Shown here in pieces: positions 5,945 to 32,556 of a DNA stretch of 64,000 nt (its first letter is position 1; each line of letters opens with the position of its first letter). This stretch comes from Nitrospira sp. (GTDB taxonomy: Bacteria; Nitrospirota; Nitrospiria; Nitrospirales; Nitrospiraceae). The position numbers and the translations under genes were made by a program. The notes under the pieces were generated by a model. That model had not been told where the DNA came from. It was given only the letters and a program-made list of their open reading frames with translations, and made no database searches. The stretch is from NCBI GenBank assembly GCA_047150005.1, contig AP038806.1, forward strand, positions 3,424,001 through 3,488,000. Reading direction: 5' to 3'.

Positions 5945-6349
5945 TCACATACAAGCACAATCACACCGACCGTTATCCTTATTCCAGGTGGTCTTACAAG
6001 TCTTGTTGGGGTAGAAGCTGCAGTTAGCCTGACCGGGGTTGGTGCACTTCTTATTTTGTCCACCGGTCCAGGTGCACTTCTCGGTGCCCGGCAGGCTTTC
6101 CAGCGTATCGCCGGTGGGTTGACCAGAATTGTTGATGACCACGGAGTTGCTTGGAGCGTCGCTATTCACCGCCACGTCGGTCTTTTGGCAGGGAGCCCCA
6201 GGTTCTTCCGACCCACCGGGCTTTGCTTCACCACAGTTCACCATCACTGATTGCGTAATGGGACTATGGCACCCTTGGAGGGCAATGAGGAAAGCTACGG
6301 CTACTGTCCAGCGGACCATGCCAACTATTCGGACGGGGACGCTCTTCAT
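5945..6349 (-). CDS. Cys-rich lipoprotein A (9 Cys after the lipobox, C-terminal GRCDCAC)
   Basis: Hydrophobic signal ending in LQGC; GGAGG RBS; paralogs at 21883 and 32215. Confidence 0.8.
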   Translation of the reverse strand: MKSVPVRIVGMVRWTVAVAFLIALQGCHSPITQSVMVNCGEAKPGGSEEPGAPCQKTDVAVNSDAPSNSVVINNSGQPTGDTLESLPGTEKCTWTGGQNKKCTNPGQANCSFYPNKTCKTTWNKDNGRCDCACM

Positions 6350-6398
6350 TGGCTACCTCCTGATCGTGTTAGGAATGATCCGGGTTCTCTGTGACGCA

Positions 6399-7136
6399 TT
6401 ATCCCGGATTGTGCTCATCATGGGCCCTCGCTTGTTGGGCAAGTAGCGCGAACACCACCGCGGCTTCCACTGGGACCCCTTCCGTCAACCCGTACAATTG
6501 CCTCGTCGCCAACGGTGTCAACTTGAGAGTTTCATCGGGATGATCGCCCAAGAAGTGTAGGTTCAGAACGGGGAACCAGACCACGAAATCCGAGTCTGAC
6601 TTCTTATGACGCATCACCAATGTGATGAGTTGTTGCAGCCCGTAAGCCGTGGTTGTGAAATCCTGCGTTTCCATAACGCGCGACACGACCAGAGACGAGC
6701 GGACTTGACCCGCGACGCTCAAGGGATAGAGACGAGATTCAAGCTGACTGATCAAAGGAGCGACTTTATCCCCAGGCTTGTACTCACGTATTCGGGTGAG
6801 ACCGATGGTATAGATATCAATCGGCTTGCCAATGTGAACGTTTGAGGCATCCTCCACTTTATCGAAACCGAGAAGCTTTGAGTTGGCGGAGTTAATCAGC
6901 GACTTGAATTTGGAACATCCTTCCAATGCTTTCATATTCCACTTTTTCAAATCTTCCGTAGGTGGCGATTGACCCGTCGTAGCCGTAAGCGGCGACGGTG
7001 GTGTGACGGCCGTGGAGCCGGGGGAAGGGACTTGTCCTGGACCAGGCAGGCACGGCACAGGCTGTGCCGACGCGTATGAACCAATCTGGCCCATCAGGAT
7101 TCCCAGAACAAAGATCATCATTCGCACGGTACGCAT
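6399..7136 (-). CDS. Secreted protease-partner protein
   Basis: Signal peptide; homologous to 22357..23076 (LGF; YP/FP..G.VR.S..V; F.V..P.L...FLG; A..VF..L). Confidence 0.8.
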   Translation of the reverse strand: MRTVRMMIFVLGILMGQIGSYASAQPVPCLPGPGQVPSPGSTAVTPPSPLTATTGQSPPTEDLKKWNMKALEGCSKFKSLINSANSKLLGFDKVEDASNVHIGKPIDIYTIGLTRIREYKPGDKVAPLISQLESRLYPLSVAGQVRSSLVVSRVMETQDFTTTAYGLQQLITLVMRHKKSDSDFVVWFPVLNLHFLGDHPDETLKLTPLATRQLYGLTEGVPVEAAVVFALLAQQARAHDEHNPG

Positions 7137-7157
7137 GCCGGCATCCCTCCTCAAGTC

Positions 7158-7790
7158 TCACCTTGCAATGTCGTAGTAGGTTCTCCAATGTTCATAGGAC
7201 CCATCCGCCGCTACACCGAATAAATGTTTGAATTTCAGAATGGCAGGGCCACGGAATCCATCGGGGTCAATCACCAACACGAACTGTTCGCCATCTTCGT
7301 CAAGTTGGTAACCGATCACCGTCCCCATATGGCCCCCACCCGAAACGAATTTAATGGCAACGGCAAGGGGGAGACCACTGTCGATCTGCGCTACAACCTG
7401 ATCCCAGCTCAAAGGTCGGCTTGTCTGCTTGGACTGAAATCCATAGCGCTCAAAATGAGGCCAGCCCGAACGATTGCAAAGCGGACTCTCAGGGTCATCG
7501 CAACAGGTCGAAGGGTCGCTTTTCCCCGGAAAGCTGTCATCGGCCTGGATGCATTGAAGCCACTGAGGTTGCCCATGGAATGTCATGATCATGTCCGCAG
7601 TGGCTGCCCAACACCAACGGTCGCTCTTTTGCTTTTTGAAAAACCTCGCCCCGGCATCCGGATCGTCTCCGAAGACAAATTTGTAATACAACGGACGCTC
7701 ATTTTCGGGGGTTGCCGGCTGTCCGAGGGCATGGGAACCCCCTAAGAGCACGGCGACTGTCACGAGGCCTGCGCAAGTCTTTCGCATCAT
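7158..7790 (-). CDS. Secreted papain-like cysteine protease (C39-like / C70 AvrRpt2-like)
   Basis: Signal peptide; QKSDRWCWAA (Gln, Cys), GGGHMGTVIGY (His), VIDP (Asp). Confidence 0.85.
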   Translation of the reverse strand: MMRKTCAGLVTVAVLLGGSHALGQPATPENERPLYYKFVFGDDPDAGARFFKKQKSDRWCWAATADMIMTFHGQPQWLQCIQADDSFPGKSDPSTCCDDPESPLCNRSGWPHFERYGFQSKQTSRPLSWDQVVAQIDSGLPLAVAIKFVSGGGHMGTVIGYQLDEDGEQFVLVIDPDGFRGPAILKFKHLFGVAADGSYEHWRTYYDIAR

Positions 7791-7808
7791 GTGAGGCTCC
7801 TGTTCTTT

Positions 7809-7898
7809 TCAAAAGCACGAGAGATCGTCAAAACGCCTTTCCGAGAAGTGCTGAGCAGGGGGGAGGGGATCACTCTTTCGGTGAAGGTAAGACGTCAT
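7809..7898 (-). other. 29-aa upstream ORF MTSYLHRKSDPLPPAQHF..., homologous to the N-terminal leaders starting at 24153 and 35140
   Basis: Manual translation; matches MTLHLHRNSRPSPPAQQ in the other modules. Confidence 0.4.
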
Positions 7899-7938
7899 GA
7901 AGTGGTATCCCGTTTCGCCTAGGTGCTAATCAGCCGCC

Positions 7939-7982
7939 TACCTATGCTTATAATGAAAATCCCGCAATAACCCTTTCGGCTA
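7939..7982 (-). promoter_or_regulatory. Module promoter: imperfect palindrome plus TTG..-N17-TAGGTA
   Basis: TAACCCTTTCGGCTA next to TTGCGG-17-TAGGTA; same spacing in 4 copies. Confidence 0.55.
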
Positions 7983-8178
7983 GGGGCGATGGCCTCTGCT
8001 CCTCCATCTCTAGCTGTAGCAGTAAGATCTCCGTGTCACCCCACAGCTTGTAAAAGCCGTATTATCTGGTTCGTCTCGTTTGTGCGGTCTGTCTTACTTC
8101 ATCCTCATTCAGCATCGACTCCGTTCATAGCTCAGGACGCTGCACTCAGCACGCAGCACTCAGAGCTCATGACTGCTT
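7965..8178. repeat. About 210-bp direct repeat, near-identical to 41566..41779
   Basis: Direct sequence comparison; the six-frame ORFs at 7989 and 41590 share their N-terminal translation. Confidence 0.9.
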
Positions 8179-8180
8179 CC

Positions 8181-8267
8181 CTAGGCCTGCCAGATGATCT
8201 CGATGACGATGTAGACCAGCGCCGCCATGAGAGTGTTGGCGAGAAACAAGCTCATTCCGATGTCCAT
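8181..8267 (-). CDS. 28-aa single-TM peptide, copy 1 (MDIGMSLFLANTLMAALVYIVIEIIWQA)
   Basis: GAGG RBS; five copies of identical length in the window. Confidence 0.7.
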   Translation of the reverse strand: MDIGMSLFLANTLMAALVYIVIEIIWQA

Positions 8268-8608
8268 GATTGCCTCGGTGACGATTCGGTTCACTGCTGC
8301 CCTCGCGAGAGTGCAATGGGTAGACCAATGAGAGATTTGACGCGAGTCAACGGCAGGTGAAGCGTGAGATCGCAGTGTGGACAATGAGATCTGCCGGTGC
8401 GGGGATTCACAGCATGGCGACAGAAGGATCTAGCGCGATCAGGCCGAAAGGACCTAAAAGCATTCGCGATGGATCGAAAGTGATTCAGTAGACAAGGTCG
8501 CGATAGTGGGATGAGAAAAGCCTCAATACGGGAGACTGGAGATCGAGGGGTTAAGAAACCCCGTGTATGCCTGACAGCCAGCCACGTGGCAATTCGAATT
8601 TCTGGATG

Positions 8609-8711
8609 TCAGGACGTGCAGTCCGTGACCCAATCCTCTGCGAGGAGCTATGCCACTTTGCTCGGGGAGGGGAGCCGGCGCAACGAAACGAGCAGCGACC
8701 CTTCGGAGTGA
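8609..8711 (-). pseudogene. Orphan TpsA 3'-tail remnant
   Basis: Translates SEGSLLVSLRRLPSPSKVA*LLAEDWVTDCTS*, matching the tails of the 14422 and 28104 genes. Confidence 0.85.
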
Positions 8712-8743
8712 CCCTGCTGAGCCTCGGCGAGAAACTGACCAGA

Positions 8744-8772: not shown

Positions 8773-8779
8773 TTTCCAT

Positions 8780-11279: not shown

Positions 11280-14255
11280 CTAAGAGCCACACTCAGTGAG
11301 CCAATCCTCTCCGGCCAATTGCATTGCCACTCGCCACTGAGAGGGGAGCCGGCGCAGCGAAATGAACGCCGTATCGTTGGAATCAGCTGAGAGTCCCGGT
11401 GCAAGAGCCTGGATCGATGGTCCACCTCCAGCGGGCGTGGACGCGAGCGGGCTGGTCAGCCAGCCGCCTGGGTCGGTCGGCAGGGTGTCGCGTCCGGCCA
11501 CGATAAAGCTGCTGACTTCGCCACGGGCGATCGCGGTGCACCGTTGGCTGAGCAAGGCTGTCACTTGAAGAGGAGCCTTGCCGAGCGGCTGGATTTTGCC
11601 GCCGGCTGTGGCGATCGGCGCTTGGATCGTAACCGCTCCGTTCTGACCGAACTGGGACGAGGCGCTCACGACGCTGCTGGCATCCGGGAGAAATAACCCG
11701 CCGTTCGTGATCGCAATGTTGATGTTGCCGCCCGGCCCCTGCACCGCCTGTGCGAGGATCTGACTGTTTTGCAAAACCACGAATTGCGGATCGATATTGA
11801 CGCTCCCGCCCCCGCCAGCGCCATCCAGGACCGACGCGCTGATCGTGCTGTTGGAAAGCTCCACCATTCCGTTCGGGCTGGTTGTGATTTTGATAGTGCC
11901 GCCACTCGATTGGTTGGCCTGTGTCGTCACCGAGCTGTTCGTCATCGCGAACTGGTTGCCAGAGTTGATCGAGATGTTGCCTGCGTTGCCCGAGCCGGTA
12001 CTGCTCGCGGAGATGGACGATCCACTGTTTAGAGTGACTGACTGCCCAGTGGTAATGGAGATGTTGCCCCCGGGACCACTGGCAGAACCGGTGCTGCTGA
12101 TTCCTGACGCGTCATCCGCCAAGAAGGTGTTGGCGGCAAGTAAGATGTTTCCGGCTGGCGCGCCTCCCTGCGTATCAGTCTTAATTTTGCTATGAGTCAG
12201 GTGAATGGTGTCTGCCGTCACCGTGAGTATGGCAGGAGTGGTCTGTGAGGTACCGCTGAATACCCCCATATTAAGCTCGATATTCTGAAGTGCAACCAGC
12301 TTGGCTGCATCGGTCGTTTGGGGACCAACGCCAGATATTGTGACGTTACCTGCCTGCCCCGACACAAGGCTCACGCTACCAATCAAGGCCCCGCTCCCGC
12401 CAGTGATGAGCGCCCCGTGCGTGGCATTGCCACGGAGTGTATTCACGTTGAGTGTAATATTACCTGCCGGCGCGCCCCCGTCACCGAATGAAGCCGTAAA
12501 GATTTGTGTGCCAGTATCGAGGCTCAGCGTATCCGTCGTGATGGTGATATTCCCCGGTGCTGTTCGGGGGTTGCCACCATCCACCCCTGTAGTGATGAAT
12601 GTGTTGTTGACGGCCACGAGCTGTGCGGCATCAGTAGACTCGGGGCGAATCCCGGAAATCGTGATGGTTCCAGTCGGCCCCGCCGTGATGCCGGGATCAT
12701 TATTTGAAATGACAAAGACTGTTTTGGCCCCTGCAATCGGCGTTTCGTCGGAAGTCACATTGCTGCGCAGCGTGTTCACGTTGAATGCCACATGCCCTCC
12801 GGGTGCAGAGCCGAGGGTATTCGCTACTATGGTTGCGGCACGTCCACCAGCCGGCAATCCCTCATTGACCAGCACCAGAGAATCGGCGGTAATGGTGATC
12901 GATGAGGGAGTCGTTTGCGGCGTCCCACCGAATACCCGGCTGCTGATCGTGGAATCTTTCAAGAGGACGCTTGTCGCCGCGGTTCCAGGTCCCCCGACGC
13001 CTTGGATGGTGATCGCCCCTGCAGGCCCGGCTCCCGCATCCGTGCTCCTACTGTCGCTGGCAATAAAGTTGCCGGCGAAATTAAAGTTGTTGGTTGGATT
13101 TAGTGGAAGGCGATTGAGGCCGGCTTGGGTGGTCAGCACGTCGACATTCAGCACGATGTCGCCACCCGCCGCTGTCCCGTAGCTGTCCGCTGTGATGAGT
13201 GCGCCGTTGCTGAATGCGGCGGTCTCTGCTGTGATGGATATCTTCGGAGAGCTGTTTGGTGAGGCAATCTCGCCACCCGGTCCGTTCATGCTAATCGCCT
13301 TGATGGAGGCGTCATTCATGATGAACTGGCCACCACGAATTACGATGCGTCCGGCTGTGTCAGCGCTCGTCTCAAGACTTGTTCCTTGTAAGAGACTGAT
13401 GTGTCCCAGCGCAGTAAAAGTTTGCCCATTGATGTTCTGAGCCGATTCCAAATTGGGAAAGAGGACTTCACCTGGCGAAGCCACACTGGCAAGACTAATC
13501 TGCCCTGCTGGCGCCGTGAGATTGGCAGCCTGGACGGTCCCCTGGACAGTCCCATTGTCCAACGTTCCATTCTGAATATTGATGTTCCCACCGATGAGTG
13601 AAATACCCATTCCTTCCGTGACCGATAGGTGGCTCCCTTGAACGGCGATGGCTCCCGGATTCGAGCCCAAGAACCCGAACGCCGCAACCGGCGCCGTGCT
13701 GAGCAACGCATCCGCGCTTACATGCGGGATTGCGTTGAATCGTGCACCATCAGCAAGCCGCAGATAATCAGCCGTTGTAAACGTCGCCATCCCGCCCACA
13801 TTCAAAGTAGCAGTCGGACCGAAGATCACGCCGGCGGGGTTCATCAGAAATAGGTTCGCATTGCCGAAGCCCCCGACGCCGTTCGTCTGAATCACTCCGA
13901 AAATGCTGGAGGGATTTCCCCCGGTGACGCGGGCCAGAATGTTGCTTGTCGGAAGACCAGAACCAAGCAGATTGCCGGCAAGGTCAACGGAGCCTGAGTT
14001 CACAAAGTTCGCGATGTTGTTTGCTGGCACATTGAAGTTGCTGAAACTGTGGAAGAGATTCATTCCACCATCCGGCCTTGATCCGCCGGTGATGTTGTAT
14101 TGCGTCGAGGTTCCAATTTGGACGGGATTGCTGACGATGGTGTGGAGATTGCCCGCGCCGGTGGTAGGCGTGATGGGTGCAGGCGTTTGGGCATGGACCA
14201 GTGGCGATTGCACCGCCCACCCGATCAACAGCCCGACGATCAAGATCCAGTTCAC
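11280..14255 (-). CDS. Filamentous hemagglutinin / TpsA-like protein 2 (991 aa)
   Basis: Signal peptide (VHA-Q), TPS domain, conserved C-terminal domain. Confidence 0.92.
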   Translation of the reverse strand: MNWILIVGLLIGWAVQSPLVHAQTPAPITPTTGAGNLHTIVSNPVQIGTSTQYNITGGSRPDGGMNLFHSFSNFNVPANNIANFVNSGSVDLAGNLLGSGLPTSNILARVTGGNPSSIFGVIQTNGVGGFGNANLFLMNPAGVIFGPTATLNVGGMATFTTADYLRLADGARFNAIPHVSADALLSTAPVAAFGFLGSNPGAIAVQGSHLSVTEGMGISLIGGNINIQNGTLDNGTVQGTVQAANLTAPAGQISLASVASPGEVLFPNLESAQNINGQTFTALGHISLLQGTSLETSADTAGRIVIRGGQFIMNDASIKAISMNGPGGEIASPNSSPKISITAETAAFSNGALITADSYGTAAGGDIVLNVDVLTTQAGLNRLPLNPTNNFNFAGNFIASDSRSTDAGAGPAGAITIQGVGGPGTAATSVLLKDSTISSRVFGGTPQTTPSSITITADSLVLVNEGLPAGGRAATIVANTLGSAPGGHVAFNVNTLRSNVTSDETPIAGAKTVFVISNNDPGITAGPTGTITISGIRPESTDAAQLVAVNNTFITTGVDGGNPRTAPGNITITTDTLSLDTGTQIFTASFGDGGAPAGNITLNVNTLRGNATHGALITGGSGALIGSVSLVSGQAGNVTISGVGPQTTDAAKLVALQNIELNMGVFSGTSQTTPAILTVTADTIHLTHSKIKTDTQGGAPAGNILLAANTFLADDASGISSTGSASGPGGNISITTGQSVTLNSGSSISASSTGSGNAGNISINSGNQFAMTNSSVTTQANQSSGGTIKITTSPNGMVELSNSTISASVLDGAGGGGSVNIDPQFVVLQNSQILAQAVQGPGGNINIAITNGGLFLPDASSVVSASSQFGQNGAVTIQAPIATAGGKIQPLGKAPLQVTALLSQRCTAIARGEVSSFIVAGRDTLPTDPGGWLTSPLASTPAGGGPSIQALAPGLSADSNDTAFISLRRLPSQWRVAMQLAGEDWLTECGS

Positions 14256-14421: not shown

Positions 14422-17400
14422 CTACGAAGTTTCGCAGCCCGAAATCCAATCTGCTTCTGAAAGCAGCTGCGCCACCTTACTTGGGGAGGGGAGCCGGCGC
14501 AGGGACACGAACAGCGATCCGTCGGAGTGAGTCGCGATTGCGGGCACACCGGCTTTCACCGAGATTCCTCCTTCGGCGGGGATGGAAGCCAAGGGACTCG
14601 TGAGCCACCCGCCTGGTTCGATGGGCAAGGTATCCCGGCCCGCCACGACGAAGCTGCTGACTTCGCCTCGCGCGATGGCCGCGCAGCGTTGGCTGAGCAG
14701 GGCAGTGACTTGAAGGGGCGCCTTCCCGAGTGGCTGGATCTTACCGCCGGCCGGCGCATTGGGGGACTGAATGATGACGTTGCCGCTTTGGCCGAACTCA
14801 GAGGAGGCGCTCACACGACTGGTGGAATCCGGCAGAAACAACCCGCCGTTGGTGATGGTGATGCCAATGTTTCCTCCGGGCCCCTGTTTGGCCTCAGCGA
14901 GAATCTGACTGTTCTGCAGGATGACGAACTGCGGATCGATGTTCACGCTCCCGCCGCCGCCCGTCCCATCCAGCACTGACGCGCTAATCTTGCTGTTGGT
15001 AAGCTCGACCCTACCGCTGGGGTTCGTCGTGATCTTAATAATCCCGCCACCTGACTGATTCGCTTCCGTCGTCACCGAGCTATTGGACATGGCAAACTGG
15101 TCACCGGCGCTGATATTGACGTTGCCGGCTGTGCCGGTCCCAGTGCTGCTGCTCGAGATTTGACTGTTGTCTTGGAGCGTAACAGTCTGCGCGGACACAT
15201 CGATGTTGCCGGCAGACCCGGTGGGAACCAGTCCTTCTGCTCCGGCGACACTTCCGGTTGTAAGACGGCCCCCACTGCTAATCGACAGGGCGTCCACATT
15301 TAGGACAATCGCCCCTCCTGCCCCGTTTGTTTCTGTAGTGGCGGTGATCGTACCTCCCTCAGTGATCGCAAGGCTTGGGGTAGAAACGGAGATTGATCCA
15401 GCGTTGCCGTATTGAAAAGCCGGATCCACCCCGGCGGTGCTTCGGCTGCTTACCTCGCTGTTCGAAGCAATAACCACTTGGCTTGGAGTATCAATGCTGA
15501 TGTTGCCGGCATGTCCACGGCTGAATCGAGTCTCAGCGCTAATCTTGCTGTTGGTGAGTGACAACTGGTCGGCGGCAAGATCGATATTACCGGCAGCTCC
15601 TTCCCCTGGCAGCAAAGGATCGACATTTGTTGTTTCTGTCAGGATCTGGCTGTCGCTGGCCAGAGTGATCGTCTGAGCCTTGGTTCGTGGACCCTGAAGG
15701 CCGAGGACGCTAACAGTCCCTCCTTGGCCTTGACCAGCCACGGAAGAAGTGATTTCACTGAAGTTCATTGTCAGGCTGTTGGTCTGAAGAGTAATGGCGC
15801 CGGCATTGCCATGGCCGATAGCGGACGTGGCAATCGCGCTTGAAGACCTCAGATCAATAACCGGGGAACTGATGAACACTTGTCCGCTATTGCCGGCCGC
15901 TGGAGATTCGGAGAATGAGCCGCTCAGAATTGCGGAATTGCTCAAGCTTACGTGGTCGGTCGCGGTAATGTGCACGCTTCCCGCATTTCCTGAGCCCGCG
16001 AAGGCGCTGCTTCCTATGGACCCAAACCCAGTGAGCGCCACAGAACCCGCTTGAACCTCGATCCCACCGGCATTCCCTTCTCCGAAGGTGTCGGCAGATA
16101 TCATGGAGCCGTCAATGGCCAACGAGCCGCTCACAATGCTGATTTTTCCGGCATCTCCATCTCCCAGGGTCTGGGCAGTGATTGTCGCCCCGCTGCTAAG
16201 AGTGAGGCTCTGCGCCGGGCTCGCGAGCCCCTGGATCGTGACGTTGCCGGCGTTACCGGGACCGGTGGTGCTGGCTGAAACCTGAGCGCCATCAGAGATG
16301 GTGACGGACTGCCCGGCGTTGAGGGTAATGTTGCCGCCGGAACCAGAGTCGGGATCCGTCCCGATCGACCGGCTGAAGATGCCGACTGGGGTACCGTCGC
16401 TCAGAGTTCCGGACAAGGCGATCGTCTCAGTTGCTGAAACCGAAATATTCCCTCCCTGTCCACTGCTGCTCGTGCCGCTGTCGATCTGAGATCCGTTTGC
16501 CATCGCCAGGGATCCGGTATTAATCGAAATGTTTCCTGCGTTGCCACAGGAGCCTGAGCAGAACTCGCTCCCAACTGTCTGTGTAAGAATTCCACTAGGG
16601 TGGATATTCCCGATGAATCCCGGTCCCCCAACATCTGGGTTGGGAAATTCGCCTGAAATTTCAATCACGCCGGCATTTACTGTGACATTGCCACCACCGC
16701 CACTGGTGCTTGTACTCGTGCTAATCCGACCTTCATGCATTACCAATCGTGGCGTCGTAACAAACACGTTTCCTGACGCTCCTTCCGTACCGACGAATCC
16801 CAGTGAGTTGGTGAAGAGTCCAGCAGGGCCACCTTGAATATTCGAGCCGCTATTCCCGATGAGACTGAAATGGTCCGTCGCAGTCACATGAATGTCGCCA
16901 GCATTGGCTCCCGCGCCTCCGGAGGTATTAGTCAGAAAGGAGCTACCATTGGTCAACTCGATAACGCGCCCGTCGAAGCTAATCCCTCCTCCGGGACCGA
17001 AAGCCGTGAAGGTACTGAACACAGTGTTGGTCGCGAGCAACGAATCTCCGCTAATCGTGATCCCGCCTCTGCCGCCAAACGAGTCCGTCGCCACTTGAGT
17101 ATCGAGCATGGTGATATCACGCACGTTCAATCGTATGTTACCCCCATAATGAGAGGCGCTTGGAGTAACTGATGCACTGCTAATGAGGATTGCACCATCA
17201 GTATGCAGGCTATCCCCTGTGAGAGTCAGGTTACCGGACGGACCGCTGGGCTCGAAACCGAGGAGTTCAGCAAGCTGGGTTCCCGTGCTAAGTGTTGTGC
17301 CCGATAGGTCAATCCCATGAGCGACAATCTCCGTATCACCGCCCGGGCCACCCGCTTGCTGGCCACTATCGGAGAAATGCCATGTCGGAAAGGGGCCAAC

Positions 17401-18555: not shown

Positions 18556-18581
18556 TTGAACACTCGCCCGGCGTCTTCGGT

Positions 18582-21500
18582 CTATGACTCGCAGTCTGCC
18601 AGCCAGTCGAGGGGACTGGCACCATTCTCCGCGGTGCCTGTCCCCCTCAGATGCGCGATGACCCACTGAGAGGGGAGTCGGCGCAGCGAAATGAACGCCG
18701 TATCGTTGGAATCAGCGGAGAGTCCCGGTGCGAGAGCCTGCACCGATAGTCCGCCATCGGTGGTCGTATTGGCGAGCGGGCTCGTGAGCCACCCGCCTGG
18801 TTCGATGGGCAAGGTATCCCGGCCCGCCACGACGAAGCTGCTCACTTCCCCGCGCGCCATCGCCGCGCAGCGCTGGCTGAGTAACGCGGTGACTTGCAAC
18901 GGCGCCGCACCCAAGGGCTGAATCTTGCCGCCGGCCGGCGCAATCGGTGCCTGAATCGTGACCGTGCCCTGTTGGCCGAACTCAGAGGAGGCGCTCACAC
19001 GACTGGTGGAGTCCGGCAGAAACAACCCGCCGTTGGTGATCGTGACGTTGATGTTACCGCCTGGGCCCTGCACCGCCTCAGCGAGAATTTGACTGTTCTG
19101 CAGGATGACGAACTGCGGATCGATGTTCACACTCCCGCCGCCGCCGGTGCCGTCGAGAACCGACGCGCTGATCGTGCTGTTGGTCAGTTGAACGGTCCCA
19201 CTGGGATCCGTCGTGATCTTGATGATGCCGCCGCTGGATTGATTCGCTTCGGTCGTGACGGAACTGTTGGCCATCGTGAACTGATTGCCTGCGGTGATGT
19301 TGATATTGCCGGCAGGGCCTGAGCCGGTGCTGCTTGCCGAGACTGATGCACCGTCCGAAATGTTTACTGATTGGCCGGCTATAAGAGAGATGTTGCCGCC
19401 GGAGCCTGATCCTGGGTCTATGCCGACTGTGCGGCTAAAGACTCCACTTGGCGTTCCATCGGTCATCGTACCGGAAATTGTGATTGTGTTCGCAGCGTGA
19501 ACAGTAACGTTTCCTCCGATTCCACTATTAGTCGTATCACTATTGATCGTTCCTCCATTCCCGAGATTCAACGAGTTGCCAGAGATGGTTACGCTACCAG
19601 CGTTGCCGCAAGGTCCCGTGCACAACTCACTGCCGACGGTGCTCGTGTAGATCCCACTTGCACGGCGCTCAGGGAGCCCACCGAGAGGTCGTTCACCTAT
19701 AATTGACACCCCCTCTTTCGCCGTGATTGTGATTGCCCCGCCGTTGCCATTGGTCTGGGTGGTACTGTCGATTCGAGCACCGCCTGTGATGGTGAGAGAT
19801 CCGGCAGAAACATTAATGGCACCGGCATTGCCGTGAGTTCCCAGGCTCACATCACCTATAGAGTTGGTGAATAGGCCGCTGCGAGCGGGAATGATGGTGG
19901 GGTCGTCGAACGTATCAGCAAACGTAGCATTACCAGTGACGGAAAGTTTAATGAATCCTGCGTCCGCATCCCCGGAGGTTTGACTGAAAACGCGAGAGCC
20001 ATTCCTGAACTCAGCGTTCTCTGCCGTAATTGTTATGCCTCCGCCAGTACCCGACGCAGTTTGATTGAAAATAATAGATCCATCCTTCAGTGCGAAGTTT
20101 CTCGCATTGATCGTCACAGTGCTTTCCCCAAGCAGACTCAAGGGGCCAATTTGACTTCCATTCACTATGGAAATGTTGCGTCCGTCTATGAGGACATTTC
20201 CTCCTCGGGCGTTGAGCGAATCAGTTGCGATCGACACAAGCTCAAACGTCATGTCCCCACCCGTGAAGGTGACATGACCGCCAGATCCAAGGCCGCCGAG
20301 AATGGCATCGCCTGTGTCGATGCGAGCTTCTTTCAAATGCATGCTATCGGCGTGGATAGTGACGTGCCCCCCGTTTCCTTCCCCGGCAGTTCCGCTCATG
20401 ACGAAGAAGTCGAACCCCCCAGGATTTCCGGTAAACGTGAGCTTTCCTGTGTTCAGGGTTATGTCGCCGCCGTTGCCTGATCCTTCAGTGTGAGTATCAA
20501 TAAGCGCAACGACCTCCGGAAGGGTCGACACTGCACTTATCCCAGGGGAACTCACCGTGATACTTCCGGCATTCCCGCTTCCGAACGATCGCGCCGTGAG
20601 AGCAGGCACTGTATCGCTTGAGATCGAGAGAGTCCCGCTCAGCTCAATATCAATAGCCGGTTGAGCAGCATCAAGGCTTCCCGTATCTGCATTGAGCGAC
20701 GAATTGATAAGTTCAAACTGTCCGCCTCGAATCCGAATGGAACCGGCCGATTCGGCCGAAACGTCTAACGACGATCCTTCGGACATGCTAATGAGCCCCA
20801 ATGCCATCGACGATGCCGGCTGGTAATTTGCGGTCGCGACCTCACCTGGTCCGGCAACGCTGACGAGGTTGATTTGTCCCCCCGGAGCAGCCAGCTTAGC
20901 CGGCTGAACGGTTTGATCCGCAAGCGTGCCTGATTTGATCGTTATGTCGCCCCCAACCAATGAGATACCTGTGCCTTCTGCTACTGTAAGGTGACTGCCT
21001 TCAATCAGGATCGCCGCGGGCTTCGAACCGAGGAATCCGAACGAGGCAACAGGCGCGGCGCTTAATAGCGCGTCAGCCGCAGCATTGGGAGAGGCGTTGA
21101 AAATTGTCCCATCGCTAAGTTTCAGATAATCCGCGGTCGTAAACGTCGCCATGCCGCCGATGTTCAGAGTGGCGGCTGGGCCGAAGATGACTCCCGCAGG
21201 GTTCATGAGGAAGAGGTTGGCGTTGGGATAGTAGGTCGCGCTGTTGATGGTTCCGAAGATGCTCGAAACACTTCCACCGGTGACCCGGCTGAGCACGTTG
21301 CCAACTGTCTGGTCAGCTATCAAATTTACGGTTTGAAACTGGGCCGTTTCCAGCGCACTAATACTAAACGTATCGAAGCTGTGAAAAAGGTTTGGTCCGG
21401 CTTTCGTGCCCTGAGTTATTTGATAGACGTTCCCCACCTTGCTGACCTGCGTATTGAGGCTGCCGGCGCCAGGCGTCGGAGCGACCTGCGCCATGGCTGG

Positions 21501-21608
21501 CAGAACGATTGCCAATGTCAGAAACAGGGGTCCGGTTACTTGCATCGTCGTGGCGTGATAAAGGTGCAAATCAACTCTGGCATGGGGCAGCGAGAAGTGG
21601 ATGGTCAT
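18582..21608 (-). CDS. Filamentous hemagglutinin / TpsA-like protein 4
   Basis: Signal peptide (AMA-Q), TPS domain, conserved C-terminal domain; start codon uncertain. Confidence 0.88.
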   Translation of the reverse strand: MTIHFSLPHARVDLHLYHATTMQVTGPLFLTLAIVLPAMAQVAPTPGAGSLNTQVSKVGNVYQITQGTKAGPNLFHSFDTFSISALETAQFQTVNLIADQTVGNVLSRVTGGSVSSIFGTINSATYYPNANLFLMNPAGVIFGPAATLNIGGMATFTTADYLKLSDGTIFNASPNAAADALLSAAPVASFGFLGSKPAAILIEGSHLTVAEGTGISLVGGDITIKSGTLADQTVQPAKLAAPGGQINLVSVAGPGEVATANYQPASSMALGLISMSEGSSLDVSAESAGSIRIRGGQFELINSSLNADTGSLDAAQPAIDIELSGTLSISSDTVPALTARSFGSGNAGSITVSSPGISAVSTLPEVVALIDTHTEGSGNGGDITLNTGKLTFTGNPGGFDFFVMSGTAGEGNGGHVTIHADSMHLKEARIDTGDAILGGLGSGGHVTFTGGDMTFELVSIATDSLNARGGNVLIDGRNISIVNGSQIGPLSLLGESTVTINARNFALKDGSIIFNQTASGTGGGITITAENAEFRNGSRVFSQTSGDADAGFIKLSVTGNATFADTFDDPTIIPARSGLFTNSIGDVSLGTHGNAGAINVSAGSLTITGGARIDSTTQTNGNGGAITITAKEGVSIIGERPLGGLPERRASGIYTSTVGSELCTGPCGNAGSVTISGNSLNLGNGGTINSDTTNSGIGGNVTVHAANTITISGTMTDGTPSGVFSRTVGIDPGSGSGGNISLIAGQSVNISDGASVSASSTGSGPAGNINITAGNQFTMANSSVTTEANQSSGGIIKITTDPSGTVQLTNSTISASVLDGTGGGGSVNIDPQFVILQNSQILAEAVQGPGGNINVTITNGGLFLPDSTSRVSASSEFGQQGTVTIQAPIAPAGGKIQPLGAAPLQVTALLSQRCAAMARGEVSSFVVAGRDTLPIEPGGWLTSPLANTTTDGGLSVQALAPGLSADSNDTAFISLRRLPSQWVIAHLRGTGTAENGASPLDWLADCES

Positions 21609-21882
21609 CGGTTCCCCGGTTACACAAGCCACACGTTCGCAATAATACGCCTGATAACTGTGAGATCCCCAATCGTCATCGGTGCTGCCTTGAATGACCG
21701 AAGACACATCGCCACGTTCTGCACCTGTTCGGCGCATCAGCCGGGCAAGAATCTGTGGCACGCATGAGGTGAAGCAACCGTCTCAAACGATAAATTGAAT
21801 CGATTATGGGAAAGTCATTCCGCATCAGGGAGCACATGTCGAAACCGTTGGGCAATGCTTCATTCCCCCTCGATGAGGTTTG

Positions 21883-22320
21883 TTACGGATAAGCATTTGC
21901 ACAATCGCATCTGCAATTACCGTCTCTGCTACCCGGACTGACCGGAGATATCCACCAGGTCTTGCATGGAGGCCCTCCAAGCGTACAAGTTCCAGAAGGA
22001 GATTTGCATCTTGTATTGCCTGTTCCGGCCACGCACCGGTAGGGTGGACTCTGACCAGTTGGAACTTGCGTGCCATTGGTGAAATAGGTGTTCGCATCCG
22101 TGTTCCAAGGACTCACAATCGTTTGCTTTAGACAAGCTGTAGGTTCATCCTCTTGTCCTCCGCCCTCTCCACCTCCGCCAGACTTTGGTGGGCAGGTCAT
22201 CTGCACATTGACCGATACCTCGACGAATCCCCTATGACAACCTTGCAAGAAGGCCACAAGAACCAGGCCACTGAGCAATGCGCCTTTCTGCCAGCAACAA
22301 TTGGCTTCAAATGCTCGCAT
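21883..22320 (-). CDS. Cys-rich lipoprotein B
   Basis: GGAGG RBS, LQGC lipobox, 9 further Cys, GNCRCDC near the C-terminus. Confidence 0.8.
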   Translation of the reverse strand: MRAFEANCCWQKGALLSGLVLVAFLQGCHRGFVEVSVNVQMTCPPKSGGGGEGGGQEDEPTACLKQTIVSPWNTDANTYFTNGTQVPTGQSPPYRCVAGTGNTRCKSPSGTCTLGGPPCKTWWISPVSPGSRDGNCRCDCANAYP

Positions 22321-22356
22321 CAAATCCTCCCTGGGTAGAGCACCCTGATCGCCGTG

Positions 22357-23076
22357 TTATCGAGGCATTTGCTCCGCAAAGATCTGCGCCGCATCCGGCT
22401 GAAGACGTTTAAAGACCAGTAGAGCAGGTTCCTCAGTTCCCGCTACTATCACGATATTGTGCACTCGATCATCAACCACATGCTTAAGTTTGAACTCGCT
22501 TCCTGCAATGGTTCCCAAAAAATACTTGTCGAGAGCGGGCACCTCGACGATGAAATAGGTTGGTGGGAGTCCGAATTGCGCGAGTGGCTGAGATTTTTCA
22601 GGAGAACCAAGCTGTAACATTCGCCACCGATGGTCGGTCATCTTCATTCCCACCAGCACGGACGCTCTGACTACGGTTCCTGAGCGAATAGGGAAAAGAA
22701 ATTGCGCGGGAACCGGTATGGACCATCTGAGAAAGTTTGTCTTCTCCAGGAGAAGTGAGATCGCATGGTGTTGCTGCCAATTGAAATCCTTTAGGCGCTC
22801 AAGGCTTATCTGAAAAACTGGATAAGGGGCAGCCACATTGATGTTTGGTATTTGAGGTATGGAGAAATCGCTTGCCCCGTTAAACCCAAGCTTCTTCGCG
22901 AAGCCATCGTGGTTTCCGACCAACCGGGGTAGGAGTTGTGTCGCAGCACCTGAAGCCACGGCGGCGGCTGTGGGCGGAGCACTAAATTCCCAGCTTGCAA
23001 AGTCTCCGATCTCGAATGCTTCTAGTCTGCTGCTACAGAAAGCGAATGCGGCGACTAGACAGATTACAATTCGCAC
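22357..23076 (-). CDS. Secreted protease-partner protein, paralog of 6399..7136
   Basis: GAGGTG RBS, GTG start, signal peptide, shared motifs. Confidence 0.78.
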   Translation of the reverse strand: MRIVICLVAAFAFCSSRLEAFEIGDFASWEFSAPPTAAAVASGAATQLLPRLVGNHDGFAKKLGFNGASDFSIPQIPNINVAAPYPVFQISLERLKDFNWQQHHAISLLLEKTNFLRWSIPVPAQFLFPIRSGTVVRASVLVGMKMTDHRWRMLQLGSPEKSQPLAQFGLPPTYFIVEVPALDKYFLGTIAGSEFKLKHVVDDRVHNIVIVAGTEEPALLVFKRLQPDAAQIFAEQMPR

Positions 23077-23086
23077 AGTGGGCACC

Positions 23087-23857
23087 TCACGGTCGCATAA
23101 TGAAGTAGTCGAATTCATGAGCAAACTTGCTTGGAATCCCGTTGTAGAAGTCGGTGAAGGGCATGATGTAGAAATCTTGCTGGCCAGGATCATAGACGTG
23201 CACAAACTCGCCTGAATTTGGTGAATTGCTATAACCTCCTATCGTGACGGCATGGCGACCGCCTCCGACCCACCTCACAACGACGATATACGGAAGTTCT
23301 TGGTCGATCTGCCAAGTCAAATCGTTCCATCCTTGAAGTTCATCAAAAGGGGGGTCATAGGAAACCTTGAGGAATTTGATGTCGGCTTTACTCAAGACGT
23401 CATCCGGCCATAGGCCGCGGTCACAATAATCCCTGGCTTCGGGTGCACCGAGTTCATTCATCGGTACGGTTCGGCGAGCTAGGCAGCAGTCAATTTGTTC
23501 CCCCGAACTCGCGCTTCCGCCCTGCGGATCGTCTTTGAAAACCTGACTCACGAGGTTGCATTGATCCTTTGGATCATGGAGAAGTTTGCGGATGAATTCG
23601 TTTACGGTTTGTGCGCTTCCGGCCCAACACCATGAGCCGGTCTCCTGTCGATGATTGGTCATGACGAGATCCCGACGCATTCCACTGCCTTCTTCGTTGA
23701 ATGCCTGGCCAGGGCTATCGGGATCTTGATCGACAATGAGTTCCTCTCCGCCGCGTGGACCTATGCCGTCTTCAACTGGTAAATTGTGATCGCTCAGATC
23801 TAAACTTATGTGCACGCATGACGACATACACAGTCCGATAAGAGCCACAAAAGGCAC
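23087..23857 (-). CDS. Papain-like cysteine protease (C39/C70-like), separated from its original start at 24153 by a MITE
   Basis: QETGSWCWAG, GGGRHAVTIGGY, VYDP. Confidence 0.8.
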   Translation of the reverse strand: MPFVALIGLCMSSCVHISLDLSDHNLPVEDGIGPRGGEELIVDQDPDSPGQAFNEEGSGMRRDLVMTNHRQETGSWCWAGSAQTVNEFIRKLLHDPKDQCNLVSQVFKDDPQGGSASSGEQIDCCLARRTVPMNELGAPEARDYCDRGLWPDDVLSKADIKFLKVSYDPPFDELQGWNDLTWQIDQELPYIVVVRWVGGGRHAVTIGGYSNSPNSGEFVHVYDPGQQDFYIMPFTDFYNGIPSKFAHEFDYFIMRP

Positions 23858-28103: not shown

Positions 28104-31100
28104 CTATGACCCGCAGTCTGTCACCCAATCATCAGTCAGCAGCTGCGCCACCTTACTTGGGGAGGGGAGCCGGCGCAGGGAGAGGATCGTTGGCTCAGAA
28201 GATTCCGATGAGGACGTTCGATCTCCGGCGTGCACTGCGGCCCCTGCTTCGGGTGGTCCCAAAGCCAACGGGCTAGGTAGCCAGCCACCTGGCTCGGTGG
28301 GTAAGGTGTCACGACCCGCGACCACGAAACTGCTGATCTCACCACGTGCAATTGCGGCGCACCGCTGGCTCAGCAGGGCGGTGACTTGAAGCGGAGCCTT
28401 GCCGAGCGGCTGGATCTTCCCGCCGGCCGGCGCGATCGGCGCCTGGATCGTGACCGTGCCCTGTTGGCCGAACTGGGAGGACGCGCTTACGACACTGGTG
28501 GCATCCGGAAGAAAGGTCCCGCCGTTGGTGATCGTGATGTTGATATTCCCGCCGGGCCCCTGTTGGGCCTGGGCGAGAATCTGACTGTTTTGCAGAATGA
28601 CGAACTGCGGGTCGAGACTCACGCTGCCGCCGCCACCGCTCCCATCAAGCACCGAGGCGCTGATCGTGCTGTTGGACAGGTCCACCGTGCCGCTGGGATT
28701 CGTCGTGATCTTGATGATGCCGCCGCTCGATTGATTCGCCTCGGTCGTGATCGTGCTGTTGGTCATCGCGAACTGATTGCCGGCCGTGATCTGAACACTT
28801 CCCGCGTTGCCCGTTCCCGTGCTGTTGGCGGAGATGCTCGCGCCATTGGTCATGATGAACGACTGCCCGGCCGTGATCCCGATATCGCCGCCGGCTGCGC
28901 CGCCGGTTGTGCTGGTGAGAATACGGCCGCCGTTCTCGATCATCACAGTCGGGGCCGAGAGCGTAATCTGCCCCGCGTGACCGGTTGCGCCGGAGTCGCT
29001 GCTGCTGCTGATCGCCGTGGAGGATCCTGAGATGAGAGCCTGCTGAGTCGCTGCAATGGTGATCGCCCCGGCTGCCCCGGCGCCGAAGGTATCGGCGTTT
29101 ATAGTGGCATGATCGGTGAGGGTGAATTGGCCGGCGTGAATGCTGATGTCTCCGGCGGTTCCGTCTGCCGCTGTCAGACTGTGGACCCGGCTGGCTCCCG
29201 AGATCGTGACGCTCTCGGCCGAACTCCCTGGGCCATCGAGTCCCCGCAACGTGACCGTACCGCCATGACCTGAACCAGATGTGACCGCAAAGAGATCCGC
29301 ACCCGCTCCTTGTGAATTAATTCGCTGACCCTCTAGGAGGATGTTCCCAGCATTTCCAGCCCCGGACGTGGACGTGCTCAGGACTGCTCCGTCGACAGTA
29401 ATCGTCGGAGCTCTGAGCAGGATATTGCCGCCCAACCCGGATCCGCCTACGGTATCGGTGTTTAAAAAAGAATTCACTGCAGTGATCTGTTGGGTCGCCC
29501 GCAGGGCAATATTGCCGGCATTACCCGCCGTGTTGTCACCGGCGGAACTCAGTGCGCTGATAGTGGACAGTCCGGACAGATCAATAGTCGTAGCGCTAAT
29601 CTGAATGTCGCCTCCGTGGTTCGGGCCTGAGGTTGTGGCCGAGAGCGCGCCCCCGTCGGAGAGCGTGACGGAGTTGGCGTTGACGACGATGTTCCCGCCG
29701 GCGCCGGAGCCCTGCGTGTCGGTGAAGATGCCACTGCCAGCGCCGGTGATGAGGACCGACTGCGCCGGACTGGCGAGCCCCTGGATGGTGATGTTGCCCG
29801 CGTTGCCGGGGCCGAGGGTGCTGGCTGAAACCTGAGCGCCATCAGAGATGGTGACGGAATTTCCGGCTAAGAGCGTGATGTTGCCGCCGGAACCAGAGCC
29901 AGGGTCTGTGCCGATCGCGCGACTGAAGATTCCGCCAGGCTCGCCCGTACTGATGGTTCCTGCCATCGCTATGGAATCGGCTGCATCAATGGTGATATTC
30001 CCGCCTCGCCCGCTACCGCTCGTGCCACTGTTGATCTGGGATCCGGCACCCATGGAAAGTGAATGTGTGGTGATAGAGATGTTTCCTGCATCGCCGCAGG
30101 CACCGGCACAATTCCCTCCGGTAGAAAGCGTAAAGATGCCACTTTGTTGAGTCACGCCTAGCGCAAATAGCGGTGGAGGCGGAACCTCGCCTGCTTCCCC
30201 AGACATTGAGATTGTGTCAGCATGAATTATTACATTCCCACCGTGTCCATTGGTGGCGGTACTAGTATTGATTCGGGAGCCACCGGTCATGGTAAGAATT
30301 GGGGTGGTAATCGTAATATCTCCTGCGTTGCCCAATCCTGAAACGCTTCCAAATGAATTGCTGAAGATGCCGCTCACTTGATCAGTCGGGTTGACTCGCG
30401 AAAGCAAGAGGTGATCTGTCGCCGTGATATTGATGGGGCCGGCACTTCCATCTCCGCCCGTGCTTGACACAAAACTACTTCCACCTGTCAATTCGATAGT
30501 AGAACCGTTGACGGTAATTCCTCCACCTGGGGACTGAAAAGTCTGGGCGGTAAGTTGGGTGTTATTCGCCGTCAAGTGGTCCGTGTTTATTACGAGGGAG
30601 CCCCCACGCTCACCACCGACGGTTGTGACAACGCTCTGGTCAAGAGCGATGTTAGGCACGTTAAGGAGAATGTTCCCCGATTGTCCGATGTTGTCGCTAA
30701 AGAGTGAGAAGGCATCGGCCACGACAATCACATTACTAAACTGAAGGCTATCCGCAGAGATGGATATGTTTCCAGCTGAGCCCGTTGATTCCTCGCCCAG
30801 TTGAAGAGCTAAGCTGTTACCGGAATTGATGACCGTGTCGTTAGCAGTGAAGTTGTGAGCACGAATACTGATGTCTCCTCCATGACCACCATTTGGACCA
30901 ATAGTTCCGCTGTCAACAAAAATTGGGACTCCAGCAAATTGAATCGCTGTAAAGTTTAAGTCACCAGTATCGATTGCGACGTTGCCAGCTCTTCCAGATC
31001 CCGACGTATGCGTATCAATGACTGAAAAGAGAAAGCTATTAATGGCCGTCCCAGTTATGTCGGTACTGCCGGACGTGATCTTAACCTCGCCGGCATTGCC

Positions 31101-32144
31101 CGTACCGGTCGTCATCGCAGTGAGCGCCGGCACATCAGTCGTCGAAATCGACACATTTCCCGTCGTATGAATATCAATCGCAACAGGCGCTCCGTCGGCA
31201 TCAACAGAGTTAGCGGAGATAGCAGCCTGATCCATCACGAACGTCCCGCCTCGGATGCGAACCGTGCCACCTGCATTTCCGCTCACGTCCAATACGGAGC
31301 CTTGCGAAATGCTAATGGAGCCAAGGGACATTGGTGAAGCGGGCTCATACGTTGAGGCCAAGATTTCACCTGGTCTTGCAACGCTTGCGATATTAATCTG
31401 TCCTCCAGGTGCTGAGAGATGAGTCGGCTGGATCGGTGTTCCATCAGCCTGCAAGCCGGTTGCCTGAATGGTAATGTTCCCACCGACGAGGGAAATGCCT
31501 GTTCCTTCTGACATTGTGAACTGACTTCCTTGAACTGTAATGGGCCCAGGGTTCGCTCCTAAAAATCCAAACGCTGCCACAGGAGCTGTGGTTAACAAGT
31601 CTGCGGGTAGTGCGCTCGGATTGGCATTGAACCGACCTCCATCGGCCAGTTTCAAGTAGTCAGACGTCGTAAACGTCGCCATCCCGCCCACGTTCAAGGT
31701 CGCGGTGGGACCAAAAATTACACCAGCTGGGTTCATCAAGAACAGGTTTGCACTCGGATAGAAAGTCGCGCTGTCAATGGTACCGAAGATGCTCGATGGA
31801 TTCCCTCCAGTGACACGACTGAGGATATTGTGCATCCCCGCGTTGGGGATGAGGTTGTTCGTTTGAAACTGCGCGGTATCACCGGTTGCCACACTGAACT
31901 GACCGAAACTATGAAACAAACTTGTGCCGACCGTGCTGCCGCCTCTGATCCCATATGTATTGCCACTGGCTGTGACCGTCGTGCCGAGGTTGCCAGTGCC
32001 GGTGGTAGGCGTGATGGAGGTTGTGACTTGGGCATGTGAAACTTTGGTAAGCCCAGGCGTGAGAGCTATAGAGGCAAGCACGAGGTAGAGAAATGCGATG
32101 GAAGAACATGAAGCGATGGACCGTCGATCTAGAAGGTGTGTCAT
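28104..32144 (-). CDS. Filamentous hemagglutinin / TpsA-like protein 5 (1346 aa)
   Basis: Signal peptide (SHA-Q), TPS domain, conserved C-terminal domain. Confidence 0.92.
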   Translation of the reverse strand: MTHLLDRRSIASCSSIAFLYLVLASIALTPGLTKVSHAQVTTSITPTTGTGNLGTTVTASGNTYGIRGGSTVGTSLFHSFGQFSVATGDTAQFQTNNLIPNAGMHNILSRVTGGNPSSIFGTIDSATFYPSANLFLMNPAGVIFGPTATLNVGGMATFTTSDYLKLADGGRFNANPSALPADLLTTAPVAAFGFLGANPGPITVQGSQFTMSEGTGISLVGGNITIQATGLQADGTPIQPTHLSAPGGQINIASVARPGEILASTYEPASPMSLGSISISQGSVLDVSGNAGGTVRIRGGTFVMDQAAISANSVDADGAPVAIDIHTTGNVSISTTDVPALTAMTTGTGNAGEVKITSGSTDITGTAINSFLFSVIDTHTSGSGRAGNVAIDTGDLNFTAIQFAGVPIFVDSGTIGPNGGHGGDISIRAHNFTANDTVINSGNSLALQLGEESTGSAGNISISADSLQFSNVIVVADAFSLFSDNIGQSGNILLNVPNIALDQSVVTTVGGERGGSLVINTDHLTANNTQLTAQTFQSPGGGITVNGSTIELTGGSSFVSSTGGDGSAGPINITATDHLLLSRVNPTDQVSGIFSNSFGSVSGLGNAGDITITTPILTMTGGSRINTSTATNGHGGNVIIHADTISMSGEAGEVPPPPLFALGVTQQSGIFTLSTGGNCAGACGDAGNISITTHSLSMGAGSQINSGTSGSGRGGNITIDAADSIAMAGTISTGEPGGIFSRAIGTDPGSGSGGNITLLAGNSVTISDGAQVSASTLGPGNAGNITIQGLASPAQSVLITGAGSGIFTDTQGSGAGGNIVVNANSVTLSDGGALSATTSGPNHGGDIQISATTIDLSGLSTISALSSAGDNTAGNAGNIALRATQQITAVNSFLNTDTVGGSGLGGNILLRAPTITVDGAVLSTSTSGAGNAGNILLEGQRINSQGAGADLFAVTSGSGHGGTVTLRGLDGPGSSAESVTISGASRVHSLTAADGTAGDISIHAGQFTLTDHATINADTFGAGAAGAITIAATQQALISGSSTAISSSSDSGATGHAGQITLSAPTVMIENGGRILTSTTGGAAGGDIGITAGQSFIMTNGASISANSTGTGNAGSVQITAGNQFAMTNSTITTEANQSSGGIIKITTNPSGTVDLSNSTISASVLDGSGGGGSVSLDPQFVILQNSQILAQAQQGPGGNINITITNGGTFLPDATSVVSASSQFGQQGTVTIQAPIAPAGGKIQPLGKAPLQVTALLSQRCAAIARGEISSFVVAGRDTLPTEPGGWLPSPLALGPPEAGAAVHAGDRTSSSESSEPTILSLRRLPSPSKVAQLLTDDWVTDCGS

Positions 32145-32214
32145 GGCACCGTCCCCTGTTCCGCCGAGATGCTAAAAAAGCGACGAGTTCAAGGACCTGC
32201 GCGCTGGGATCTTC

Positions 32215-32556
32215 CTACATGCACTTGCAATCACAGCGTCCAGGGCCAGGGCTCGGGTTGGGATTTAACTTACACTTGCCACTCGGGGTTGCGACATCGC
32301 TGCATGCAGCATTGAGGCTGTTGCAAACCCACGAATCATTGGAAGGTGACCATGTCGTGCAATTCGGATAGTTTGCTGCATCGCTAGGCCATTGTCCCAT
32401 TTTATGTTTATAGCAATTGCCCTCACCGAGAATCCCACTGACATTCTCACAGCTGCCGTCTACTACCTGCACCTTGAGGGGGCACCCTTGGAGCATTAAG
32501 GCTACGAACACAAAAGCCGTTAGGCTCATCAGCTTGTAAAGTGGCCGCGAACTCAT
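32215..32556 (-). CDS. Cys-rich lipoprotein C
   Basis: AGGAGG RBS, LQGC lipobox, 9 further Cys, ends GRCDCKCM. Confidence 0.82.
   Translation of the reverse strand: MSSRPLYKLMSLTAFVFVALMLQGCPLKVQVVDGSCENVSGILGEGNCYKHKMGQWPSDAANYPNCTTWSPSNDSWVCNSLNAACSDVATPSGKCKLNPNPSPGPGRCDCKCM

Follow-up and report, generated by a model that had tools for sequence, protein, structure and literature searches.

Small exported proteins that accompany a secretion locus or an exported protease are known from a few described systems. According to PMC3415462 and PMC5422565, BcpO of the Burkholderia bcpAIOB locus is a small predicted outer-membrane (OM) lipoprotein without Asp at position +2 and the third partner in a two-partner secretion (TPS) locus; it counts 73-74 amino acids (aa), is encoded between bcpI and bcpB, on the 5' side of tpsB, and varies hardly at all within its class. 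According to PMC3462683, Bfi and Bti of Bacteroides are small (116-138 aa), mainly beta, exported inhibitors co-transcribed with papain-fold C10 proteases, some of them being lipoproteins and one carrying a signal-peptidase-I signal. Proteolysis and anchoring of the secreted TPS partner are described as well since, in PMC5422565, LapG cuts the periplasmic tail of CdrA, SphB1 releases FHA, and HMW1 and HxuA are held in TpsB by a disulfide-bonded periplasmic C-terminal anchor. We analysed a stretch of 64,000 nucleotides (nt) of Nitrospira sp. DNA (assembly GCA_047150005.1, contig AP038806.1, positions 3,424,001 to 3,488,000 of the forward strand), hereafter the window, which encodes three small cysteine-rich lipoproteins, CysLpp1, CysLpp2 and CysLpp3. 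As judged from their sequences these are genuine paralogues of an unnamed protein family, and gene order and divergence across genomes indicate that the lipoprotein gene is the third of a fast-evolving trio with an exported papain-like peptidase and a prostaphopain-prodomain-like protein.

In the translations of the open reading frames (ORFs) each CysLpp N-terminus runs from a basic n-region through a hydrophobic core to LQGC. The original prediction had described this lipobox in all three proteins, with exactly nine further Cys behind it and an end of the G-x-C-x-C-x-C type, and all three features are present in the window proteins, whose C-termini read GRCDCAC-M (CysLpp1), GNCRCDC-ANAYP (CysLpp2) and GRCDCKC-M (CysLpp3). 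The residue at +2 after the lipobox Cys is His, His and Pro respectively, none of them being Asp. When read from its TTG start, the CysLpp2 ORF includes two extra Cys within the signal-peptide n-region. The ATG of CysLpp1 is preceded at 6 nt by a strong AGGAGG-type ribosome-binding site, and this site, together with the conserved homologues and the confident predicted fold, rules out a chance ORF or a non-coding region. Every CysLpp gene lies directly 5' of a tpsA gene, with gaps of 16, 121 and 70 nt, the first being the distance from the CysLpp1 stop to the start codon of TpsA1. A scan of positions 5800-8700 for sigma-70 promoters and terminators gave counts at or under the shuffled expectation.

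The three paralogues share 30-37% pairwise identity (E 1e-4 to 1e-3, local BLAST) and their genome holds exactly three copies of the gene, found by profile at E 2.6e-62 to 2.5e-42. A word-based search returned eight non-self homologues of CysLpp1, with 57-78% identity, and two of CysLpp3, with 74% and 66%. Among 1.84 billion representative proteins the profile search found 27 clusters at E<=1e-3, eight of which reach <=1e-10 and three <=1e-30; the databases being clustered, such family sizes are lower bounds. The named database entries among these clusters are all called 'hypothetical protein'. No Pfam or NCBIfam family matches the three lipoproteins at E<=0.01 and the PDB sequence-profile search gave a single chance row (E 0.49), in agreement with the original expectation that they match no described family. 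Taxon sampling covered one bacterial phylum. No member turned up in 32 further genomes of the genus or in 400 taken from across the phylum outside one sister genus (g9), where the profile matches in 11 of 134 genomes. A search for related loci gave 111 pattern matches in genome contigs, none of which was confirmed, and one locus of 1070 bases in metagenome contigs.

A MAFFT alignment of 39 sequences was used to follow the Cys pattern through the further homologues, and the pattern is kept. Indeed, full invariance extends to the lipobox Cys and seven of those behind it, two others come close to it, and nine Cys follow the lipobox in 37 of the 39 members, the other two having 11. Contrary to what had been proposed, the order is not strictly the same: in CysLpp3 and its two orthologues MAFFT puts one Cys into a different alignment column, with one Cys lost and one gained, so that the count is kept. 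Likewise, the C-x-C-x-C end is present in all 39 members, while the Gly which precedes it in the proposed signature is found in only 17. The Lys reported after the sixth post-lipobox Cys is seen in all three window proteins, at a position where 34 of 36 family sequences have a basic residue. Few other features are conserved, namely P-G after the fifth Cys, a P-T-G motif, a basic residue after the seventh Cys (the same 34/36) and a strand-like motif with Val at position 35 (31/38) and at 37 (22/37) followed by Cys. In 34 members a lipobox pattern of the PROSITE type matches at the aligned Cys; the remaining five have an unusual residue at -2.

CysLpp1 was modelled with AlphaFold2 on a 39-row alignment, with a mean predicted local distance difference test score (pLDDT) of 79.7. 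The mature part consists of beta strands only. Residues 51-134 reach 87-97 in ten-residue blocks and enclose eight Cys (Cys54, 92, 102, 110, 118, 129, 131 and 133), and residues 36-38 and 40-48 score below 50, which corresponds to the low-complexity linker that had been noticed after the first post-lipobox Cys in two of the three proteins and that is rich in Gly, Pro and Glu. The ninth Cys, Cys39, ends the strand-like motif near the lipid anchor and precedes the Gly/Pro-rich tether. Among 22 further proteins from the same gene slot in the sister genus, 19 have 11, 9, 5 or 3 Cys after the signal peptide; the other three are even-numbered (8, 4 or 2 Cys) and keep the V-x-V strand, of which only the Cys is missing. 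The Cys numbers therefore change pairwise except at the strand. For this reason the strand Cys beside the lipid anchor is probably an unpaired thiol and the others are taken as disulfide-bonded, the parity being good indirect evidence for it. The knotted variable domain with a free thiol that had first been suggested is supported in part. In four of the 22 slot proteins the signal peptide is an ordinary one without lipobox, hence lipid anchoring is usual but not universal. The ESM Atlas offered nothing usable (best feature score 0.79, unnamed clusters, structure template-modelling score <=0.36).

The gene linkage was established in the sister genus, where DUF928 is present in 85 of 134 genomes and the prodomain-like protein, here called X250, in 24. 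In 20 of these 24 the X250 gene shares a contig with a DUF928 gene at a distance of 7.6-9.2 kb, and in the other four, which are fragmented assemblies, the two genes are on separate contigs. The order peptidase, X250, small Cys-rich protein, TpsA, TpsB, CHAT, DUF928 is seen in all nine long X250 loci as well as in the Nitrospira genome itself. Directly behind X250, 21 of the 23 examinable genomes encode a family member or its short form; in the 24th the position is cut by a contig end. Furthermore, in all four TpsA-TpsB-CHAT-DUF928 loci that have no X250 the peptidase and the lipoprotein are absent too, which makes the lipoprotein part of an optional three-gene add-on and not of the core.

Across ten operons the three add-on genes share a fast divergence, with mean normalised values of 0.84 for the lipoprotein, 0.88 for X250 and 0.86 for the peptidase, compared to 0.57/0.49 for the N- and C-terminal parts of TpsA, 0.31 for TpsB and 0.33 for CHAT. 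The hypervariability ascribed to the lipoproteins is real as a strong divergence but it is not special to their gene, since the two upstream genes diverge equally fast. Spearman correlations of the lipoprotein distances are 0.44 with X250, 0.17 with the peptidase, 0.03 with TpsA-C, 0.02 with TpsB and -0.11 with CHAT. An immunity protein of contact-dependent growth inhibition (CDI) was considered and ruled out, given that the gene product is exported, that the gene is 5' of tpsA and that it does not co-vary with the TpsA C-terminus.

The features of the locus are given in the table. X250-1 has an AlphaFold2 model which resembles the prostaphopain B proregion and cystatin-like folds; against the PDB, Foldseek found no match at E<=1e-3 for either AlphaFold2 model. 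In peptidase 1, Gln54, Cys60 and His154 are invariant in four of four aligned homologues, the Gln standing six residues ahead of the Cys of a W-C-W motif, which is the arrangement of papain; four more Cys are invariant in the four aligned sequences, and the PDB sequence-profile search with the peptidase gave no match. In cluster 3, that of CysLpp3, X250 and the papain-fold peptidase are missing. The TPS domain is recognised by Pfam at E 1e-34 to 1e-37 in the three TpsAs downstream of CysLpp genes. All five window TpsAs carry a C-terminal Cys pair 82-92 residues apart, the second at three residues from the protein end, and in four of them there is in addition a C-x3-C mid-protein; by analogy with HMW1 and HxuA the terminal pair may be a periplasmic disulfide anchor. 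Just outside the window, past an IS30-like insertion, follow TpsB (ShlB/POTRA_2), a TPR-CHAT protease and two DUF928 genes. The N-termini of the operon proteins are signal-peptide-like throughout.

Table. Features of the CysLpp loci and their surroundings (window positions unless a locus is named).
Feature	Position	Strand	Description
CysLpp1	5945..6349	(-)	134 aa; LQGC lipobox Cys27; V-x-V-x-C motif ending Cys39; Gly/Pro linker; folded domain
CysLpp2	21883..22323	(-)	146-aa ORF from TTG; lipobox Cys at residue 29; 9 further Cys; CRCDC + 5 residues at end
CysLpp3	32215..32556	(-)	113 aa; lipobox Cys25; 9 further Cys, one moved relative to the other two paralogues
X250-1	6399..7154	(-)	exported; 251 aa; no Pfam family; directly upstream of CysLpp1
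X250-2	22357..23205	(-)	282 aa; paralogue of X250-1, 22% identity; upstream of CysLpp2
Papain-fold peptidase 1	7158..7790	(-)	exported; Peptidase_C70 27.8 bits, Peptidase_C39_2 27.9 bits (Pfam)
Papain-fold peptidase 2	23087..23857	(-)	C70 18.6 bits, just under cut-off 19; aligns with peptidase 1
S8 subtilase	32641..34134	(-)	Fervidolysin-type N-terminal prodomain; protease position upstream of CysLpp3
TpsA1	1906..5928	(-)	TPS domain; 1340 aa; C-terminal Cys1258/Cys1338; ends C-x-S
TpsA downstream of CysLpp2	18582..21761	(-)	1059-aa ORF; followed by two more TpsA genes
Additional TpsA	14422..18666	(-)	1414 aa; no lipoprotein gene of its own
Additional TpsA	11280..14255	(-)	991 aa; no lipoprotein gene of its own
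TpsA3	28104..32144	(-)	1346 aa; downstream of CysLpp3; 67% identical to TpsA1
Shared upstream element	8181-8480, 24682-24981, 35669-35968	(-)	ahead of each of three TpsA modules; 92-100% identical
Micro-ORFs	24682-24768, 35669-35755, 41784-41870, 43369-43455		
Paralogous exported proteins	34208-35140, 37012-38385	(-)	weak sub-threshold Polysacc_lyase_14 matches
Oxylipin-type cluster	46124-57092	(-)	
Island-like features	87-944, 25483-26310, 36001-36798, 39081-39830; 8567-9450; 10568-11292; L023 10065-11075, 17935-18945		
Family members of L032 (G571)	L032 9787-10263, 11589-11939	(-)	flank a peptidase-X250 pair
DUF928	L023 11279-12913		own genome, just outside the window

In one genome (G571, locus L032), two family members flank the peptidase-X250 pair and both have ordinary signal peptides. 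The DUF928 proteins (L023, L021, L022, L031, L032, L034, L035 and L041) have five invariant Cys, an odd number, including a C-x-C, and the CHAT proteins of these operons have two, one of which is in the catalytic S-A-C-Q-T-G motif.

The element shared by the three TpsA modules exists in the genome as three full copies and a partial one, all within the window. It holds a conserved hydrophobic micro-ORF of 28 codons ending I-W-Q-[DE], and the same micro-ORF is found upstream of TPS-CHAT-DUF928 loci in six sister-genus genomes (L021, L031, L033, L037, L038 and L039), including loci without the trio; the element has no Rfam match and the micro-ORF no Pfam or NCBIfam match. For the first of the two paralogous exported proteins, the start and the region ahead of it are shared with the leader region in the two other modules. 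The region as a whole is island-like, with several transposase genes of the rve type and two identical IS30-like copies, of which one stands between tpsA1 and tpsB; two toxin-antitoxin pairs of the PIN type (RHH+PIN and Phd+PIN) are interleaved with the TpsA modules. Further along, a cluster with an oxylipin-type look encodes a 1771-aa protein in which animal haem peroxidase and lipoxygenase domains are fused, together with a di-haem cytochrome c resembling RoxA, a phospholipase of the patatin type and an OM channel of the FadL type, with a GAF histidine kinase adjoining.

Compared to the described systems, the lipoprotein is most like the third partners of TPS loci or the small inhibitors linked to proteases, while its scaffold and gene position, and apparently its sequence, set it apart from each of them. 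With BcpO the CysLpp family has in common a small lipoprotein without Asp at +2 in a TPS locus, but by description its members are longer (112-146 aa), have nine conserved Cys, diverge fast and are encoded 5' of tpsA behind a protease pair; moreover, in contrast to the bcpA-I-O-B order, the gene does not stand between an immunity gene and tpsB, and the immunity gene is absent. The likeness to Bfi/Bti and to the staphopain-staphostatin operons consists in a small beta-rich exported protein near an exported papain-fold protease, with mixed lipobox and ordinary signals. This setting is found in nine of nine long loci, where the peptidase is two genes upstream of the Cys-rich protein. However, the searches gave no sequence or fold match to staphostatins, no staphostatin chain being among the fold-search rows, and the CysLpp proteins differ from such inhibitors by a predicted disulfide-locked scaffold and by the separate gene for X250 between protease and lipoprotein. 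Finally, the window TpsAs with their C-terminal Cys pair and the papain-fold or S8 proteases encoded upstream recall CdrA/CdrB-LapG, FHA-SphB1 and HMW1/HxuA, none of which is described with a lipoprotein rich in Cys or with a partner of the prodomain type. LapG itself belongs to a different peptidase family and is controlled by LapD and cyclic di-GMP. Literature searches, subscription-only papers aside, found no description of the trio, of a Cys-rich lipoprotein 5' of tpsA or of a TPS-CHAT-DUF928 module.

The anatomy, the Cys parity, the gene linkage and the shared fast divergence are direct results, from which we infer the localisation, the disulfide map, the binding partner and the effect on TpsA. 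The protein consists of a lipobox signal peptide, the V-x-V motif with its single, probably unpaired Cys, a flexible Gly/Pro-rich tether and a beta-rich domain of about 80 residues, which would be locked by four disulfides, three of them involving the C-terminal CxCxC strand. Tentatively, we favour the possibility that it is an OM-anchored binding partner of the protease module which governs how TpsA is processed or released. It could serve as an inhibitor, a decoy or a docking site that holds or restrains the protease at the OM beside the TpsB pore, resulting in control over the proteolytic processing or release of surface-held TpsA, and the lone Cys could form a reversible intermolecular disulfide. 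The CysLpp3 copy, which stands behind an S8 protease instead of the papain-fold pair, was counted in favour of a protease as partner, as were the Gln, Cys and His kept by the peptidase, the shared divergence and the terminal Cys pair of the window TpsAs. Precedents for such a role are LapG with CdrA, SphB1 with FHA, and the Bacteroides inhibitors encoded next to papain-fold proteases. Several observations weigh against such a role. X250 already looks like a protease inhibitor or prodomain (residues 49-193 of the 1x9y chain being the proregion), so that a second inhibitor is not required, and two of the 23 X250 loci (G574 and G610) have no lipoprotein after X250. The correlation of the lipoprotein with X250 gives weak support, as it comes from 45 non-independent pairs with near-saturated distances. 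In addition, the four family members with ordinary signal peptides indicate that membrane anchoring is not obligatory. Lastly, the lipoprotein gene always adjoins tpsA, even in cluster 3 without papain-fold peptidase and X250, and a partner of TpsA fits this equally well.

Such a partner would be a TPS helper in the manner of BcpO, acting at the OM on TpsA itself, in its efficient export, its maturation or the tethering of its C-terminal anchor at TpsB, independently of the protease upstream. BcpO, a small predicted OM lipoprotein of Burkholderia TPS/CDI loci, is required for BcpA function according to PMC3415462, and the conserved C-terminal Cys pair of the window TpsAs agrees with a helper of this kind; in one variant the lone lipoprotein Cys might be linked to a TpsA Cys, but TpsB has no conserved Cys and the Cys count of mature TpsA is even. 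Furthermore, the TpsA/TpsB pairs of the four X250-less loci do not need the lipoprotein, the two additional TpsA genes of the window have none, and the divergence of the lipoprotein does not track that of TpsA-C, TpsB or CHAT. For these reasons we hold this helper function to be possible but somewhat doubtful.

The Cys themselves suggest two other functions. A metal-binding lipoprotein, of the metallothionein type or a Cu/Zn chaperone, would have its thiolate ligands in the CxCxC tail and the spare Cys, which would then not form disulfides, and the richness in Cys, the invariant terminal CxCxC and the odd Cys count are in line with it. It is nevertheless highly improbable, given the export to the oxidising periplasm, the placement of eight Cys inside a confident beta domain, the shift of Cys numbers by two at all positions except one, as expected of disulfide pairs, an operon in which no metal-handling gene was found and the lack of any metallothionein-type Pfam match. 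The sole structural matches of the lipoprotein, weak in resemblance, are neurotrophin-type knots (Spaetzle 3e07 and 4bv4, NGF 1sg1, NT-3 9fik and coagulogen 1aoc), which like the CysLpp1 model show an elongated beta domain that a Cys cluster, with a CxC at the C-terminus, would hold in place. Neurotrophin-type knot proteins are activated by proteolysis and the Spaetzle dimer has an extra unpaired Cys. In the same way the knotted domain might be stored on the membrane and cut free in the Gly-rich tether by the co-encoded peptidase, as in the activation of Spaetzle, coagulogen or pro-NGF, to serve as a diffusible signal, an adhesin ligand or an antimicrobial. The three lipoproteins have no match to the neurotrophin, Spaetzle or coagulogen Pfam families at E<=0.01. 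We regard this ligand or toxin as unlikely, and it is just as hard to credit that the CysLpp proteins would be the first prokaryotic neurotrophin/Spaetzle-type knot proteins, lipid-anchored pro-ligands freed by a co-encoded, co-evolving papain-fold protease. The rest of the probability goes to some explanation outside those considered here.

Two-partner secretion is usually described as two proteins with a few ad hoc helpers, and here a conserved add-on module stands ahead of tpsA. It brings a protease, a prodomain-like protein and a putatively disulfide-locked lipoprotein with a spare thiol into a widespread and unstudied TpsA-TpsB-CHAT-DUF928 envelope system. If the knot-ligand hypothesis were true, this would be a bacterial counterpart of the protease-activated knot cytokines, tied to a TPS/CHAT envelope system, and if the weak resemblance to the Spaetzle/NGF knot is a true one, that fold reaches beyond animals. 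The family is a candidate new disulfide-rich scaffold in bacteria and, with about 80 residues, four disulfides and one free Cys as predicted, it would provide a compact and expressible handle on the processing and release of surface filaments.

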